IMG/VR virus record: IMGVR_UViG_2579779149_000006 | Strand: one strand, 5' to 3' | From: a virus | Taxonomy: Duplodnaviria; Heunggongvirae; Uroviricota; Caudoviricetes | Length of the DNA stretch: 24,488 nt | Shown: one piece after another, positions 14,716-21,146 of the stretch | Layout of the letters: the number at the start of each line of letters is the position of its first letter | How positions within the stretch are numbered: the first letter of the stretch is position 1 | The notes under the pieces: generated by a model | What the model saw: only the letters and a program-made list of their open reading frames with translations | Told to the model about the DNA's origin: nothing | Database searches by the model: none | Made by a program: the position numbers and the translations under genes

Positions 14716-16488
14716 ATGACCATCACCACAGACACCACTCTTTTACACGACCCGCGTCGTCAGGCGGCGCTGCTGTACTGGCAGGGGTTTTCCGTGCCGC
14801 AGATTGCCGCCATGTTGCAGATGAAACGCCCGACGGTGCAGAGCTGGAAACAGCGCGACGGCTGGGACAGCGTTGCCCCCATCAGCCGTGTCGAAATGAG
14901 TCTGGAAGCGCGGCTGACCCAGCTCATCATCAAACCGCAGAAAACCGGCGGTGACTTCAAGGAAATTGACCTGCTGGGACGCCAGATTGAACGACTGGCA
15001 CGGGTCAACCGCTACAGTCAGACCGGCAACGAGGCAGACCTTAATCCGAACGTCGCTAACCGCAACAAAGGCGGGCGCCGCAAACCGAAAAAGAATTTTT
15101 TCAGTGACGAGGCCATCGAAAAGCTGGAGCAGATTTTCTTTGAGCAGTCTTTCGACTATCAGTTGCACTGGTATCGCGCCGGGCTTGAGCACCGCATCCG
15201 CGATATCCTGAAATCCCGCCAGATTGGCGCGACGTTTTATTTTTCCCGCGAGGCGCTGCTGCGCGCCCTGAAAACCGGTCATAACCAGATTTTTCTGTCG
15301 GCCAGTAAAACGCAGGCGTATGTGTTCCGCGAATACATCATCGCCTTTGCCCGGCTGGTTGACGTTGACCTGACCGGTGACCCGATTGTCCTGGGCAATA
15401 ACGGCGCAAAACTGATTTTTCTCGGCACCAACTCCAACACCGCACAGAGCCATAACGGCGACCTGTACGTCGATGAGATTTTCTGGATCCCGAATTTTCA
15501 GGTACTGCGTAAGGTGGCATCAGGTATGGCCTCACAGAGTCACCTGCGCTCGACCTATTTCTCCACCCCGTCCACGCTGGCGCACGACGCCTACCCGTTC
15601 TGGTCGGGTGAACTGTTCAACCGGGGACGCGCCAGCGCCGCCGAACGCGTGGAAATCGACGTCAGTCATAACGCCCTTGCCGGTGGGCTTCTCTGTGCGG
15701 ACGGCCAGTGGCGGCAGATTGTCACCATTGAGGACGCGCTGAAAGGCGGCTGCACGCTGTTCGACATTGAGCAGCTCAAACGTGAAAACAGCGCCGACGA
15801 TTTTAAAAACCTGTTCATGTGTGAATTTGTTGACGACAAAGCGTCGGTGTTCCCGTTCGAGGAGCTGCAACGCTGCATGGTCGATACGCTGGAAGAATGG
15901 GAAGACTATGCACCGTTTGCCGCAAATCCGTTCGGCTCCCGCCCGGTATGGATTGGTTACGACCCGTCACACCGTGGCGACAGCGCCGGATGCGTGGTGC
16001 TGGCACCGCCGGTGGTGGCCGGTGGCAAATTCAGGATCCTTGAGCGTCACCAGTGGAAAGGCATGGACTTTGCCACCCAGGCAGAATCCATCCGCAAACT
16101 CACCGAAAAATATAACGTTGAATACATCGGGATTGATGCCACCGGCCTCGGTGTCGGTGTGTTCCAGCTCGTGCGCTCGTTCTATCCCGCCGCGCGCGAT
16201 ATCCGCTACACGCCGGAAATGAAAACCGCAATGGTGCTCAAGGCAAAAGACGTTATCCGCCGTGGCTGTCTGGAATATGACGTCAGCGCCACCGACATCA
16301 CCAGCTCGTTTATGGCTATCCGCAAGACCATGACCAGCAGCGGACGCAGCGCCACCTATGAGGCCAGCCGCAGCGAGGAAGCCAGCCACGCCGACCTCGC
16401 CTGGGCGACCATGCACGCCCTGTTAAATGAGCCACTCACCGCCGGTATCAGCACTCCGCTGACATCCACCATTCTGGAGTTTTACTGA
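14716..16488 (+). CDS. P: terminase large (ATPase) subunit P, 590 aa
   Basis: Start taken at MTITTDTT (internal ATG of ORF 14686..16488), giving 590 aa, as P2 P. Stop overlaps the Q start (TGATG). Confidence 0.9.
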   Translation: MTITTDTTLLHDPRRQAALLYWQGFSVPQIAAMLQMKRPTVQSWKQRDGWDSVAPISRVEMSLEARLTQLIIKPQKTGGDFKEIDLLGRQIERLARVNRYSQTGNEADLNPNVANRNKGGRRKPKKNFFSDEAIEKLEQIFFEQSFDYQLHWYRAGLEHRIRDILKSRQIGATFYFSREALLRALKTGHNQIFLSASKTQAYVFREYIIAFARLVDVDLTGDPIVLGNNGAKLIFLGTNSNTAQSHNGDLYVDEIFWIPNFQVLRKVASGMASQSHLRSTYFSTPSTLAHDAYPFWSGELFNRGRASAAERVEIDVSHNALAGGLLCADGQWRQIVTIEDALKGGCTLFDIEQLKRENSADDFKNLFMCEFVDDKASVFPFEELQRCMVDTLEEWEDYAPFAANPFGSRPVWIGYDPSHRGDSAGCVVLAPPVVAGGKFRILERHQWKGMDFATQAESIRKLTEKYNVEYIGIDATGLGVGVFQLVRSFYPAARDIRYTPEMKTAMVLKAKDVIRRGCLEYDVSATDITSSFMAIRKTMTSSGRSATYEASRSEEASHADLAWATMHALLNEPLTAGISTPLTSTILEFY

Positions 16489-17522
16489 TGAGCAAGAAAA
16501 AAGGGAAAACACCGCAACCTGCGGCAAAAACAATGACCGCCAGCGCCCCGAAAATGGAGGCATTCACCTTTGGCGAGCCGGTGCCGGTACTCGACCGCCG
16601 TGATATTCTGGATTACGTCGAGTGCATCAGTAACGGCAGATGGTATGAGCCGCCGGTCAGCTTTACCGGTCTGGCGAAAAGCCTGCGTGCTGCCGTGCAT
16701 CACAGCTCGCCGATTTACGTTAAACGCAATATTCTGGCTTCAACGTTTATTCCGCATCCGTGGCTTTCTCAGCAGGATTTCAGCCGCTTTGTGCTGGATT
16801 TTCTGGTGTTCGGCAATGCGTTTCTGGAAAAGCGTTACAGCACCACCGGCAAGGTCATCAGACTGGAAACCTCACCGGCAAAATATACCCGCCGTGGCGT
16901 GGAGGAGGATGTTTACTGGTGGGTGCCTTCCTTCAACGAGCCGACAGCCTTCGCACCTGGCTCCGTGTTTCATCTGCTGGAGCCGGATATTAATCAGGAG
17001 CTGTACGGCCTGCCGGAATATCTGAGCGCCCTTAATTCTGCCTGGCTGAATGAGTCAGCCACGCTGTTCCGCCGCAAGTATTACGAAAACGGCGCACATG
17101 CCGGATACATCATGTACGTCACCGATGCCGTGCAGGACCGCAACGATATCGAAATGCTTCGCGAAAACATGGTTAAGTCGAAAGGCCGCAATAACTTTAA
17201 AAATCTGTTTCTCTATGCACCACAGGGGAAAGCCGACGGCATTAAAATTATCCCGCTCAGTGAAGTGGCAACGAAGGACGATTTTTTTAATATCAAAAAA
17301 GCCAGTGCCGCTGACCTGCTGGACGCACACCGCATCCCCTTTCAGTTGATGGGTGGCAAGCCGGAGAACGTCGGGTCGCTGGGTGATATTGAGAAAGTGG
17401 CAAAGGTCTTTGTCCGCAATGAGCTTATCCCGTTACAGGACAGGATTCGGGAAATAAACGGCTGGCTTGGTCAGGAAGTCATCCGCTTTAAAAACTACTC
17501 ACTGGACACTGACAACGGCTGA
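16488..17522 (+). CDS. Q: portal (capsid vertex) protein Q, 344 aa
   Basis: ATG at 16488-16490. 344 aa, as P2 Q. Followed by a terminator and the cos region. Confidence 0.9.
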   Translation: MSKKKGKTPQPAAKTMTASAPKMEAFTFGEPVPVLDRRDILDYVECISNGRWYEPPVSFTGLAKSLRAAVHHSSPIYVKRNILASTFIPHPWLSQQDFSRFVLDFLVFGNAFLEKRYSTTGKVIRLETSPAKYTRRGVEEDVYWWVPSFNEPTAFAPGSVFHLLEPDINQELYGLPEYLSALNSAWLNESATLFRRKYYENGAHAGYIMYVTDAVQDRNDIEMLRENMVKSKGRNNFKNLFLYAPQGKADGIKIIPLSEVATKDDFFNIKKASAADLLDAHRIPFQLMGGKPENVGSLGDIEKVAKVFVRNELIPLQDRIREINGWLGQEVIRFKNYSLDTDNG

Positions 17523-17526
17523 ACAT

Positions 17527-17549
17527 CGCCGCCTGCGGGCGGCTTTTTT
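17527..17549 (+). terminator. rho-independent terminator after Q
   Basis: GC-rich hairpin GCCGCC-tgcg-GGCGGC followed by TTTTTT, immediately 3' of the Q stop. Confidence 0.6.
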
Positions 17550-17691: not shown

Positions 17692-17710
17692 GTGCTTTCC
17701 CCGCCTCGCC
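17692..17710. other. cos cohesive-end sequence (19-mer)
   Basis: GTGCTTTCCCCGCCTCGCC is the reverse complement of GGCGAGGCGGGGAAAGCAC, which I recall as the P2/186 19-nt cohesive end. It sits 170 bp past the portal gene, where P2 cos is expected. The match is from memory, not a database check. Confidence 0.55.
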
Positions 17711-17994
17711 CGCCCGCTTCACGTGGCGGTTTTAATGCAGTTGCATAGATACTATGGATCCGCACCAGTCCTGACCGCACGCAGCCTGAACGGACATCCC
17801 CAGCGCATGCAAAAACATTCACTTGTTGCATGCATAGCTTTTTAAGTACGCCATACCGCAACTGTACATTTTTAAGCAATTGGCAACTTTAAAAAATTTA
17901 CATTGCTTTCAAGACCTTATCATCCGTAGTCTCTGTTTTTTACTTTGAGCTACATCAATAAAATCTCAAACATGTTTAATGCAAAGCCCTTGTT

Positions 17995-18048
17995 ACACAA
18001 CATAGAATGTATGTCTAGAAACAACGACATACTATATGTTGTGTTTTT
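17995..18048 (+). terminator. long imperfect AT-rich hairpin followed by a T-run (terminator-like or structured RNA 3' end)
   Basis: Arms ACACAACATA (17995-18004) and TATGTC (18010-18015) pair with GACATA (18026-18031) and TATGTTGTGT (18035-18044); loop 18016-18025; followed by TTTT at 18045-18048. Confidence 0.3.
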
Positions 18049-18188
18049 CCGGCTCTCTGTTCGGTGATATGCCAAATCACTTTGCGTTTAAACAGAGCAT
18101 TATTTCAGGGCAAGACTTCGCTCAAAAGTCATTCCACCTAAGAAGCGCATATACCGGTGGAAGTTGCCCTCTACTTACAGGAGGCAAT

Positions 18189-18302
18189 ATGAAGAAATGC
18201 TATTACTGCATTCTCGTTCTGGCCCTCTTTGGCTATCCAAACGGTAGTCCGAGTGGTTTGTCAGTAAACGTCAGTAATATCAATGTCAGCATTATGCTTT
18301 AA
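18189..18302 (+). CDS. candidate small protein, 37 aa (MKKCYYCILVLALFGYPNGSPSGLSVNVSNINVSIML)
   Basis: ATG at 18189 preceded by a consensus AGGAGG (18179-18184, 4-nt spacer). Signal-peptide-like N-terminus. Stop followed within 12 nt by a strong terminator. The longer 88-aa ORF from 18036 begins on a non-ATG codon. Confidence 0.3.
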   Translation: MKKCYYCILVLALFGYPNGSPSGLSVNVSNINVSIML

Positions 18303-18314
18303 TATGCTTCAAAC

Positions 18315-18344
18315 AAAAAAACCACCTGCCAGGGTGGTTTTTTT
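18315..18344. terminator. bidirectional rho-independent terminator
   Basis: AAAAAAA-CCACCT-gcca-GGGTGG-TTTTTTT: a GC stem flanked by a 7-A run and a 7-T run. It can terminate the plus-strand small ORF and the leftward early operon coming out of A. Confidence 0.7.
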
Positions 18345-18604
18345 GCGCCCATCATCAATACGATGAAAGACTGACAAGACTTCGCTCAAGACGAATTATG
18401 CGTCGACATAAGGTTACCCGCAATGATTTTATTAGACTAAATGGATGGCCTTTTATGACCCGGATCAAACGGCTGTCCTTACCGACATGCTAGTCACTCA
18501 ATAGCATTTAGCCTTCTAATTCAGCATGCTATTGACCTTCTGCTGCCCCATAACTGCTCCGCATAAGCCATTCAATGCCATATCAAATCACGTTGTGTTT
18601 TTAC

Positions 18605-20881
18605 TCAAATGGGTAACGAGAACCCCGGCCACTCATCAGCAACCGGATACGTGAATTTTTTCCCGTCATAATTTACGGTCGCGCCACGCGCCAGCGCCTC
18701 AAGCTCCCATCGTTGCGGCCTGATACCGTTCTGAGCGAGGTCAACGCGGATACGGGTAATTTGCAATCGTTCAGACCTGGTCAGTCTGGCAGATGGTGCA
18801 ATTTCATGCGGTTTTAACGGGATTCCGTTTCTTTGCTGACGATTTGGTGTTCTCAGTCCGTGTTTTAATGCGCCCCTGAGCACCATCACGACCTCCGGGT
18901 CACTCCATTCGATAACACCGTCATCTACCAGATTAAGCACTGCTGCGGCGTGCTCAGAAGGTGTAGGAGCCGGTAACGAAGTATCACCACCGGTGAGCTT
19001 TCCACAGTTATTGACAGGACTCCGAGGCGCGGCGATGCCGCTTTTTAAAGTCAAAGGCTCAACGACCGGCACTTTCGGCACAATGCGCCAGTCCGTGGTT
19101 CTGGTGATATGAATATGACGCGCGCCGAGATGCGGTGCGTAAATGCCGACCACTCTCTCGACTTCTTCCTCGTACTCGTTAACGTCATCCGACGGGCTAC
19201 GGGCAACCCTGACAGTCTGACAATCGCGCGGGACATTTGCCCCACCCTGCGCGCTGATATACAACGCAAAATCACCACTGTCTGCGGCGGCGCGTGCAGC
19301 CTCGACGCGTTCGTCAAACTCATCAGCAATGCTGACGCCGCGAGGCAGTTTGCGTAGTTCACGGTAAGCCCCCATTGTCGGCAGGCCAACCGTTTTAAAT
19401 TGTGGGATACGCCACGTTGACGCCCATGCGGTAACAGCCGCAGCAGTGTCTTTCAGCGGTCTGCCGGTATCGTTATCGAGCTGACCATCCAGTGCATAGC
19501 CATCGATGTTTTTTGAGATGTATTTCGCGATATATCCCGCAGCACCGCCCCGGTTAAGGTGTTTTGCCTGAAAACGGTTTCGCGCGGCTCCTCTTTCGTC
19601 GCCATCCTCTTTGAGCGCATAACGACGCATGATTTCAATAATCTGGTTACGCTGGCGTGGATTACAAAAAAGCATCATATGCCAGTGCGGCGTTCCGTCG
19701 TGGTGTGGCTCGACGACACGCAAACCGTAGACCTGTAAATCATTATCCTTGAATGCCGTGCGCATCAGGCTCCAGATGCGGCAGAGATAACGCTGCGCAT
19801 CCTTTGGATTAAATGCCTCATCGTTCCAGCCGTGATTAAGCTGAACGGTTTTACTTTCGCCTTTTCTGACCTGGCGTGTCGGGTGATACTTTGACGGCGC
19901 GGTCAGCGTGATAAACATCCCCACATCACCCTCTGCGGCGGCGTAACGCTCAATACCGGCAATGGTGTTCATCAGCTCCATCCGGCGAATTTCAGGATTA
20001 GAAATACTGCCCATCACCTTACTGATAAGGTCGATGCGCTCGCCGGTTTCCCTGTTTTCAAGGTCACACGATTTAAGAAATTCCAGATTTGCCTGGCGGC
20101 GCGCACGCACATCACGAATGGCATGTTTACTGGCATAAGGAGAACGGTCTTTATTGACCTCCCCGACAGCAATCAGTAACGCCTCATGCCAGCGCATACG
20201 CTGGCCTTTAAGCTGATGAGTCCACCACTCATCGTTAAACAGACGGGCAATGGCAGAATATGCCTGCCTCGTGGTCATCTGTCCTTTACGGTATTTTTTC
20301 CAGTAGAGCGGGGAAATATTGAAAGCACGTGCAGCGCCAGCAACATGACCATACAGGTGAGCCTGCGCCTCATCCGTAAACAGCGATTCTTTTTCGCCAT
20401 GCGCATCCACCCAGGCATCGCAGAGTTCCTCATACATCATGAAAAGCTGCGATGAGATACGGGCTGCAAATTTTTTCAGCTCCTTGTCATTCATCCCCGG
20501 CAGACGCGCATAATGGTCACGCTCTGCCAGAAACAGCAACGACGCGTCGGTGTTCATTTCATGGCGCTGATTCACACGCTCAATGCGCGGCCATAAACGA
20601 CGCTGAAAAGTGGATGTGAGGAAATAAAACCCGTGCACCGGGCTTTTATTGCGCCGGATGTAGTCATAGCGTGAAGTAAACAGCGAGCGCAAAAAGTAAG
20701 GCAGGCGGTTAATCGTGGATAAAACACCTTGCACCTGACGCATCTCGTCACGTGTAAGGGGTCTTTCGCGCCCGACGGCCTCGCGTGGCGCGTTCCATGC
20801 ATAAGCACCGGTAAACGCCTTACCGGTGCCTGCAGCAAATGCTGAAGGAGGGACAAAACGCCCGGAGGCTTTAACGGCCAT
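18605..20881 (-). CDS. A: replication initiation protein A (rolling-circle HUH endonuclease), about 758 aa
   Basis: Start taken at ATG 20879-20881 (MAVKASGRF...); the track start at 20923 is TTG. HUH-type motif GTPHWHMMLF and a tyrosine pair AGYIAKYISK. Length close to P2 A (761 aa). Confidence 0.9.
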   Translation of the reverse strand: MAVKASGRFVPPSAFAAGTGKAFTGAYAWNAPREAVGRERPLTRDEMRQVQGVLSTINRLPYFLRSLFTSRYDYIRRNKSPVHGFYFLTSTFQRRLWPRIERVNQRHEMNTDASLLFLAERDHYARLPGMNDKELKKFAARISSQLFMMYEELCDAWVDAHGEKESLFTDEAQAHLYGHVAGAARAFNISPLYWKKYRKGQMTTRQAYSAIARLFNDEWWTHQLKGQRMRWHEALLIAVGEVNKDRSPYASKHAIRDVRARRQANLEFLKSCDLENRETGERIDLISKVMGSISNPEIRRMELMNTIAGIERYAAAEGDVGMFITLTAPSKYHPTRQVRKGESKTVQLNHGWNDEAFNPKDAQRYLCRIWSLMRTAFKDNDLQVYGLRVVEPHHDGTPHWHMMLFCNPRQRNQIIEIMRRYALKEDGDERGAARNRFQAKHLNRGGAAGYIAKYISKNIDGYALDGQLDNDTGRPLKDTAAAVTAWASTWRIPQFKTVGLPTMGAYRELRKLPRGVSIADEFDERVEAARAAADSGDFALYISAQGGANVPRDCQTVRVARSPSDDVNEYEEEVERVVGIYAPHLGARHIHITRTTDWRIVPKVPVVEPLTLKSGIAAPRSPVNNCGKLTGGDTSLPAPTPSEHAAAVLNLVDDGVIEWSDPEVVMVLRGALKHGLRTPNRQQRNGIPLKPHEIAPSARLTRSERLQITRIRVDLAQNGIRPQRWELEALARGATVNYDGKKFTYPVADEWPGFSLPI

Positions 20882-21146
20882 ATGAGCCAAAAGCCTCTGA
20901 ACAACGCCTGCTGAGTTGCTCAACCTGCGCGTTTAAATCAGCAAAAGACTTTGCGCTTCCGGTCAGAATATCGTGATGCATCAGGCCGGAAACGAGCTGG
21001 CTTAATTTCGGATAATAACCAACCACCGCCAGCCATTCCTGACCGGCGTTTTTACCGCTTTCCGCTCTCTTTTTCTCGTGGAGAATAAACTGAAAGCTGT
21101 CACTGGTAACGACATAACGTTCGCCAATTTCAATACGAATACTCAT
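20871..21146 (-). CDS. small early protein (P2 orf83 position), 91 aa
   Basis: ATG at 21144-21146. Overlaps the A start by 11 nt and the upstream gene stop. Call based on synteny. Confidence 0.55.
   Translation of the reverse strand: MSIRIEIGERYVVTSDSFQFILHEKKRAESGKNAGQEWLAVVGYYPKLSQLVSGLMHHDILTGSAKSFADLNAQVEQLSRRCSEAFGSYGR

Follow-up and report, generated by a model that had tools for sequence, protein, structure and literature searches.

What is the function of a 37-codon open reading frame (ORF) that lies between the replication gene and the cohesive end site of a P2-like prophage and is closely followed by a terminator? The question was raised by the window analysed here, a stretch of 24,488 nucleotides (nt) from IMG/VR (IMGVR_UViG_2579779149_000006), in which an earlier reading of the letters (the original prediction) had noted an AGGAGG before the ATG at 18189, a product of 37 amino acids (aa) and a terminator 12 nt past the stop codon. 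The sequence is as claimed, with AGGAGG at 18179-18184, a spacer of 4 nt before the ATG and the TAA at 18300-18302. The ORF is almost certainly a real small-protein gene, and it is very probably paired with a dedicated antisense-type small RNA (sRNA); the original prediction had missed this convergent gene as well as the 15-nt direct repeat that marks its target. Both genes belong to a cassette of about 550 bp (about 17936-18475, from the conservation edges in an alignment of ten lineages). For the pair we favour, on balance, a type I toxin-antitoxin (TA) module of a new family and of unusual layout, whose transcription, toxicity and repression we infer.

Homologous DNA was gathered with patterns placed outside the ORF, in the terminator and in a block of the 5' untranslated region (5'UTR), from IMG/VR, metagenomes, GenBank phages, PLSDB and E. 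coli genomes. The ORF was kept at the same place in all 68 loci that cover it, with a length of 37 aa (39 aa in one locus). These loci represent 18 distinct nucleotide versions and 13 peptides, and the alignments indicate a retention of the ORF far beyond chance. An exhaustive phmmer search of 1.84 billion proteins returned only members of the same family, adding two variants to give 15 peptides, and a protein word search with a padded peptide query found 2 database proteins only. The dN/dS ratio ranged from 0.12 to 0.41 in every computable pair. Between lineages with about 73% DNA identity, synonymous divergence is near saturation (pS 0.4-0.96) at a non-synonymous divergence (pN) of 0.17-0.29, and the variable columns are distributed 22/13/33 over codon positions 1, 2 and 3. 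Equally frequent synonymous and non-synonymous changes, which the original prediction had named as the outcome that would speak against a protein, are clearly contradicted by the dN/dS values and the codon-position pattern, which thus indicate that the peptide is under purifying selection. An in-frame extension to 88 aa (start at 18036) was rejected: a TAG interrupts this frame in relatives, so the 37-aa form is the conserved one. The record of Salmonella phage MET_P1_103_31 annotates the ORF as a hypothetical coding sequence, and RefSeq/PGAP annotates neither the peptide gene nor the sRNA gene. In one NCBI protein of 68 aa (P0002) the stop codon was lost via small indels and the frame runs through the terminator; it is possibly an inactivated or altered copy.

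The peptide has a basic N-terminus, a hydrophobic segment of 11-13 residues with the core CILVLALF, and a C-terminus in which polar and hydrophobic residues alternate (GRAVY of the peptides 0.66-0.88). Conserved residues are M-[KN]-[KR], C7-I8, L11, L13, G-Y-P and G-S-x-S-G-[WL]-S. The alternation is beta-strand-like over the C-terminal 12-14 residues (18261-18299, residues 24-37) in every lineage. The description of a genuine small protein with a signal-peptide-like N-terminus in a prophage variable region was borne out. The peptides had no match in Pfam, NCBIfam or PADLOC, and PHROG returned only matches with E-values of 0.2-0.3 to families of unknown function.

The sRNA gene is predicted on the opposite strand, with a product of 75-79 nt across lineages. 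Its −10 box CATAAT is invariant in the ten-lineage alignment and its −35 box reads TTGCGG, TTGCGA or TTGCCT; the spacer of 17-18 nt is free to vary in sequence, and an A/T-rich block lies upstream. In all ten lineages the RNA folded with an unpaired 5' end, followed by one hairpin and the terminator. The middle hairpin differs in sequence in nearly every lineage with its stem kept, and because of its G.U pairs the minus strand is more stable than its complement in 10 out of 10 lineages. A promoter-like sequence on the plus strand, CTGACA-17-AATTAT, was judged secondary, as it leaves the conserved CGCAA block unexplained and has nothing conserved downstream. Conserved patches upstream of the sRNA promoter (18426-18475; TTTATTAG, TTATGAC and ATCAA) mark the right edge of the cassette. 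No Rfam family was matched by the RNAs apart from sub-threshold RNAI and Phe_leader scores, which are due to the terminator.

Both genes are connected by an exact 15-nt direct repeat (18111-18125 and 18375-18389), the copies of which lie 264 bp apart and have no second close match anywhere in the 24-kb window. The first 15 nt of the predicted sRNA are the exact complement of the leader at 18111-18125, with a perfect match of 15-18 nt, and the target is situated about 65 nt upstream of the Shine-Dalgarno (SD) sequence and is about 50% unpaired in ensemble folds. The predicted duplex has an energy of −29 kcal/mol, compared with −14.4±2.2 kcal/mol for shuffled seeds, none of which reached the observed value in 1000 trials. 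Among 12 haplotypes of target and seed, 97.4% of cells are paired (0 of 500 shuffles reached this value). Both partners have changed at four positions, of which three are in locus L061 (where either copy reads TAAGGCTTTGCTCA) and the fourth is in L068. The sRNA of L061 pairs with its own mRNA at −31.5 kcal/mol and with most other mRNAs at about −14 kcal/mol. All one-sided changes are mRNA-G/sRNA-U and A.C never occurs; as one-sided changes are thus only of the RNA-compatible G.U type, this directional pattern favours RNA-RNA pairing over simple gene conversion or a repeat that binds a protein.

The mRNA and the sRNA are predicted to end at one terminator, across which they are wholly complementary. 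It consists of A7 (18315-18321), a 6-bp stem with a 4-nt loop (18322-18337) and T7 (18338-18344), a perfect 13/13 inverted repeat when the A/T runs are counted, and this palindrome should therefore work in both directions. All lineages are identical over the terminator except for one loop base. The original prediction had regarded it as dedicated to the ORF, which proved incorrect: it is common to the convergent sRNA gene and is also the first terminator downstream of the replication gene gpA (stop at 18605, minus strand) in this prophage, and from its position it probably also ends the P2 early (B-A) operon. It had further been called the strongest terminator of the window, which holds for its T run, the longest, and not for its stem energy (−8.3 kcal/mol versus −13.0 for the terminator at 17528-17543 of the portal gene, ORF 16488-17522). 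A consensus terminator scan missed the site, probably due to the stem reaching into the A/T runs. The terminator core AAACCACCTGCCAGGGTGGTTT (18319-18340) is identical to a hairpin of ColE1-type small plasmids at the position of the RNAI terminator (L021, L012 and about 100 small plasmids), and this shared core accounts for the weak Rfam RNAI matches.

For the peptide mRNA, to which no promoter could be assigned confidently before, a conserved TGCAAA-17-TAGAAT is now proposed (Table 1). The hexamers and the spacer length are invariant in ten lineages (−10 box TAGAAT or TAAAAT) and the spacer sequence varies. A consensus promoter scan missed this promoter because its −35 box is weak. A candidate further upstream, TAAAAT at 17959, was discarded for its non-conserved hexamer and poor spacing. 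Upstream of the −35 box, a block at 17936-17979 (TTTTTACTTTG...TCAATAAAA...CAAACAT) is nearly invariant in the ten lineages and does not match a promoter; possible roles are those of an UP element or of a binding site for a regulator.

The leader of this mRNA is predicted to be highly structured, with the SD sequence held in a hairpin. The mean unpaired probability of the SD is 0.02-0.40 in the predicted ensembles of the ten lineages, and its pairing with the anti-SD survives sequence change, as in GCCGCC/GGUGGC of locus L013. An upstream element that mimics the SD lies immediately 5' of the sRNA site and overlaps it; in most lineages it reads GGUGGC. It can form a helix of 6-7 bp with the anti-SD in every lineage, with the covariants GGUGGC/GCCGCC, GGUGGU/ACCACC and GGUGAC/GUCACC, and cognate pairs have a mean energy of −12.0 kcal/mol, versus −9.4 for non-cognate pairs. 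The hairpin at 18132-18162 is likewise kept by compensatory changes, to CCUUCAG/CUGAAGG in L013 and to UCCGUCAC/GUGUCGGA in Klebsiella types. Part of the 5'UTR helix (18060-18089) recurs with 73% identity as a 30-nt direct repeat at 18571-18600, abutting the gpA stop; the similarity may be due to chance or be what is left of a second cassette.

Table 1. Coordinates of the cassette features and of the neighbouring cohesive end in the window.
Feature	Position	Strand	Details
P2 cos cohesive-end sequence	17692-17710	-	gtgctttccccgcctcgcc, reverse complement of GGCGAGGCGGGGAAAGCAC; 19 nt, which we take to be the P2 cos end; context, outside the cassette
Predicted mRNA promoter	17980-18008	+	−35 TGCAAA 17980-17985, 17-nt spacer, −10 TAGAAT 18003-18008
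Predicted peptide mRNA	18015-18344	+	about 330 nt: 174-nt 5'UTR, ORF, terminator; start inferred from the −10 box
5'-terminal stem-loop	18017-18048	+	starts at 1-3 nt from the predicted mRNA start (8 of 10 lineages)
Conserved 5'UTR helix	18052-18098	+	CUCUGUU..GGUGAU..AUCACU..AAACAGAG; RNAalifold, compensatory changes in L061 and L068
Upstream element AGGGCAA (SD mimic)	18107-18113	+	pairs with anti-SD UUGCCCU 18164-18170
sRNA target site in 5'UTR	18109-18124	+	GGCAAGACUUCGCUCA
5'UTR hairpin UUCCACC/GGUGGAA	18132-18162	+	stem kept by compensatory changes
SD-sequestering hairpin	18164-18187	+	anti-SD UUGCCCUCU 18164-18172, SD AGGAGGCAA 18179-18187
37-aa peptide gene, candidate toxin	18189-18302	+	MKKCYYCILVLALFGYPNGSPSGLSVNVSNINVSIML; intact in 68/68 covered loci
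Predicted sRNA of about 77 nt, candidate antitoxin	18312-18388	-	seed 18388-18373, hairpin 18371-18347, terminator
Bidirectional intrinsic terminator	18315-18344	both	common to mRNA (+) and sRNA (-)
Predicted sRNA promoter	18395-18423	-	−35 TTGCGG 18423-18418, 17-nt spacer, −10 CATAAT 18400-18395

The cassette was found in 158 of 5426 complete E. coli genomes (about 3%), always on the chromosome and abutting gpA, and in three P2-type phages in GenBank. In PLSDB, about 390 large plasmids carry it, mostly from Klebsiella and also from Enterobacter and for the most part conjugative (IncFIB/IncFII); an IncHI1B/IncFIB liver-abscess plasmid is among the carriers. On plasmids it is located among insertion sequence (IS) elements and accessory operons. 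In an N15-like phage-plasmid it adjoins the protelomerase gene, and another copy adjoins the gene for a TraI plasmid relaxase. Comparison of these contexts indicates that the cassette travels between prophages and plasmids in one piece, with the kind of distribution that addiction or defence modules typically show. The most informative divergent copy is that of L013 (5380-8042, IMG/VR), an N15-like linear phage-plasmid in which the cassette is flanked by the protelomerase gene (TelK domains) and a gene for 1383 aa without Pfam match. A contig scan with protein patterns gave only a Zixibacteria locus, which was spurious, being the signal peptide of a longer protein; three further pattern scans of viral contigs yielded chance matches and no new lineage.

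As a TA module, the cassette would work as follows. From its moderately strong TGCAAA-17-TAGAAT promoter, an mRNA of about 330 nt would be made, the long structured 5'UTR of which keeps the SD paired. The 37-aa peptide would presumably insert in the inner membrane and be harmful in excess. The convergent sRNA of about 77 nt, expressed from its own promoter and ending at the common bidirectional terminator, would bind the 5'UTR with its first 15-18 nt, about 65 nt upstream of the SD, and so block synthesis of the peptide: it could lock the conformer in which the SD is sequestered, cover a standby or activating element and/or form a duplex that serves RNase III as a substrate. The competing helices suggest the hypothesis of a switch operated by the SD mimic: the SD would be freed when the mimic takes the anti-SD, and the anti-SD would return to the SD when the sRNA covers the mimic. 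Should the short-lived sRNA disappear, because the plasmid or prophage is lost or transcription is shut off, e.g. by phage infection, translation of the stable mRNA would go ahead and poison the cell.

In line with the type I TA class, the cassette encodes a small (<60 aa) hydrophobic peptide, is accompanied by an adjacent sRNA with extended complementarity to the mRNA (in silico), and has an SD that is inaccessible in the predicted structures. A number of observations weigh against such a module. With 11-13 residues, the hydrophobic segment is short for a helix that spans the membrane, type I toxins do not usually have a beta-like C-terminus, and an AlphaFold model of the single peptide was of low confidence (pLDDT 60) and uninformative. 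None of six cassette peptides was matched at E≤10 by the toxic_TimP model NF040796 of NCBIfam, which scored E. coli TimP at 86.8 bits. The −35 box of the mRNA promoter agrees with the consensus at three of six positions, and blocking of the sRNA site in equilibrium folds did not shift SD accessibility in a consistent manner and did not bear out the proposed switch. Gene conversion between the two repeat copies is a conceivable source of their covariation, although the G.U asymmetry speaks for RNA pairing. The dRNA-seq, RIP-seq and RIL-seq data for K. pneumoniae MGH 78578 are from a strain without the cassette; its plasmid sRNAs KpnR_124, 127, 128 and 132 are at hok, IS and finO loci and are distinct from the cassette sRNA.

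The main alternative to the TA module is a non-toxic small membrane protein, tuned by the sRNA and of benefit to the mobile element through superinfection exclusion, modulation of a host membrane protein or control of a defence system nearby. Regulators are common among small membrane proteins under sRNA control, the comparative evidence supports regulation and not toxicity, the cassette occupies a P2 locus of exclusion and defence genes, and the beta-like pattern of the C-terminus is unlike that of the classic pore-forming type I toxins. We nevertheless hold it to be rather unlikely, since an autonomous cassette in contexts as unrelated as plasmids, an N15-like phage-plasmid and P2 suits a selfish addiction module better than a partner-specific regulator, and it is characteristically toxic products that are kept under such tight control in several layers, here the sequestered SD and the dedicated antisense RNA. 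A role as exclusion factor, which the original prediction had listed next to toxin and leader peptide, is compatible with the evidence; of the other two roles, the toxin is favoured by the architecture. The sRNA might also act in the opposite sense, opening the structure that hides the SD as DsrA does on rpoS, in a positive switch instead of a TA module. Equilibrium predictions have the SD paired with no sRNA present, the sRNA site abuts the anti-SD helix, and blocking this site slightly raised SD accessibility in a few lineages (from 0.09 to 0.21 in L042). In most lineages, however, accessibility was lowered or unchanged, covering of the overlapped mimic, which competes for the anti-SD, should favour the closed SD hairpin, and the characterised loci of this layout are all repressive (PMC7667032, PMC11228461), which makes activation very unlikely.

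That the ORF is a leader peptide and the terminator an attenuator would fit with the stop codon 12 nt before a strong terminator and with the sub-threshold Rfam Phe_leader matches of 23-26 bits (gathering score 55). These matches are explained by the terminator alone, which also matches RNAI; moreover, there is no plus-strand gene downstream in any context, as gpA converges and the flanks differ elsewhere, regulatory codon runs are lacking, and purifying selection extends along the whole peptide. We regard this role as extremely improbable. The same applies to the idea that the region does no more than close the P2 early (B-A) operon, with its 3' end, its terminator and a non-coding spacer, and contains the ORF by chance, even if the hairpin is the first one downstream of gpA and probably ends the operon in P2, and PGAP annotates nothing here: the cassette is conserved without gpA on plasmids and on the phage-plasmid, and frame, length and amino acids are kept at 73% DNA identity with a dN/dS well below 1.

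By analogy, the nearest functional counterpart of the proposed TA module is timP/timR at the ryfA locus of Salmonella and E. coli. In that system a signal-like toxin of 38 aa is controlled by TimR, which pairs with its 5' end over 18 nt, more than 60 nt upstream of the ribosome binding site (RBS) (PMC7667032), and the timP mRNA combines an RBS-sequestering stem with long-range activating interactions (PMC11228461, PMC13000454). TimP peptides of 38-41 aa (E. coli TimP MKIRCFCIVLIV...) share with the cassette peptide a basic N-terminus, a signal-peptide-like hydrophobic segment and C-x-C-I-hydrophobic at residues 5-9. Also similar are the terminator soon after the toxin stop codon, the RBS in a stem-loop with long-range UTR interactions, and the pairing of the extreme 5' end of the sRNA, over 15-18 nt, with a 5'UTR site that lies upstream of the RBS by more than 60 nt, a resemblance that is functional only. 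In contrast, the cassette sRNA gene is downstream, convergent and terminator-sharing, whereas timR is upstream and divergent; the seed and target sequences are unrelated, the C-terminus of the cassette peptide is alternating and beta-like, and the cassette resides on mobile elements instead of a fixed chromosomal locus. With hhalign, cassette peptides and TimP were aligned at 37% probability over only 11 N-terminal columns, and Rfam RyfA gave no match at E≤1 or at the gathering threshold. Membership of the TimP/TimR family was rejected on the blindness of the TimP model, the 11-column similarity, the missing RyfA match and the convergent downstream gene order. In E. coli K-12, the timR-timP interval itself (L082, 1690-1790) contains a second timR-like terminator and body sequence, and looks like it holds a duplicated or decayed timR copy.

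The E. coli loci tisB/istR-1, zorO/orzO, shoB/ohsC and dinQ/agrB, with their non-overlapping antitoxins, resemble the cassette in that complementarity takes the form of a short direct repeat in the DNA. Their antitoxins bind a long 5'UTR far from the RBS, with the SD sequestered in the primary transcript, and the cassette UTR of about 170 nt is like that of zorO in length (PMC11228461). These antitoxins are divergent and upstream, unlike that of the cassette, and the toxins are alpha-helical transmembrane peptides of unrelated sequence. No match to Rfam IstR, OhsC, OrzO or AgrB and no LexA box was seen at the cassette. Gene order is closer to that of bsrG/SR4 and txpA/RatA from Bacillus prophages, where toxin and antitoxin genes are convergent and overlap with fully complementary 3' ends. 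There the 3' overlap is the main interaction, whereas in the prophage-borne cassette it comprises only the shared terminator and the covarying interaction is that between the sRNA 5' end and the mRNA 5'UTR. With hok/sok the cassette has in common the small membrane peptide, control by an antisense RNA and carriage on large conjugative plasmids, and post-segregational killing would be the expected role; the Klebsiella plasmids also carry hok. Unlike hok, the cassette has no Hok_Gef match in Pfam or NCBIfam and no overlapping mok frame, and its antisense RNA does not overlap the translation start region. A search of the open literature, with subscription-only papers and specialised TA databases outside its scope, found no description of the peptide, the seed or a type I TA system in P2-like prophages or Klebsiella plasmids.

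If the TA reading is correct, the cassette represents an undescribed type I family in enterobacterial mobile elements that is invisible to current annotation, and a candidate plasmid-addiction or phage-defence determinant with a bearing on the persistence of resistance and virulence plasmids. Its layout of convergent genes, one bidirectional terminator and a contact between 5' seed and 5'UTR, together with the SD mimic, anti-SD and SD, would offer a compact RNA-switch model comparable to timP. A bolder version, which we put forward as a long shot, is that the toxin of this new family differs from helical pore-formers: a short membrane anchor would present a conserved amphipathic beta-strand (S-V-N-V-S-x-I-x-V-x-I) outside the cytoplasm, where it could jam an envelope machine or self-assemble. 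By abortive infection or addiction, the cassette would then 'guard' the gpA-cos defence hotspot of P2 as well as resistance and virulence plasmids of Klebsiella. When P2 grows lytically, read-through from its early operon would add further antitoxin sequence in the form of a 3'UTR.

In the prophage, the cassette is positioned in the gpA-cos interval, a variable locus, where gpA is the replication protein of 772 aa encoded by minus-strand ORF 18605-20923 (Pfam Phage_GPA, E 6e-123). P2 itself carries tin and old in this interval and its relatives carry other cargo. Nothing besides the cassette was found in the interval of the present prophage (17720-18605), so that 'empty' P2 hotspots of this kind are not empty. 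E. coli W has an extra AAA ATPase and a hypothetical gene in the interval, a strain of ST131 three extra genes including an ImmA/IrrE peptidase, and two sequenced phages 2-3 extra hypothetical genes. The extra genes lie on the cos side of the cassette in all four cases, and the cassette keeps adjoining gpA. The cos sequence is located about 170 bp to the left of the cassette.

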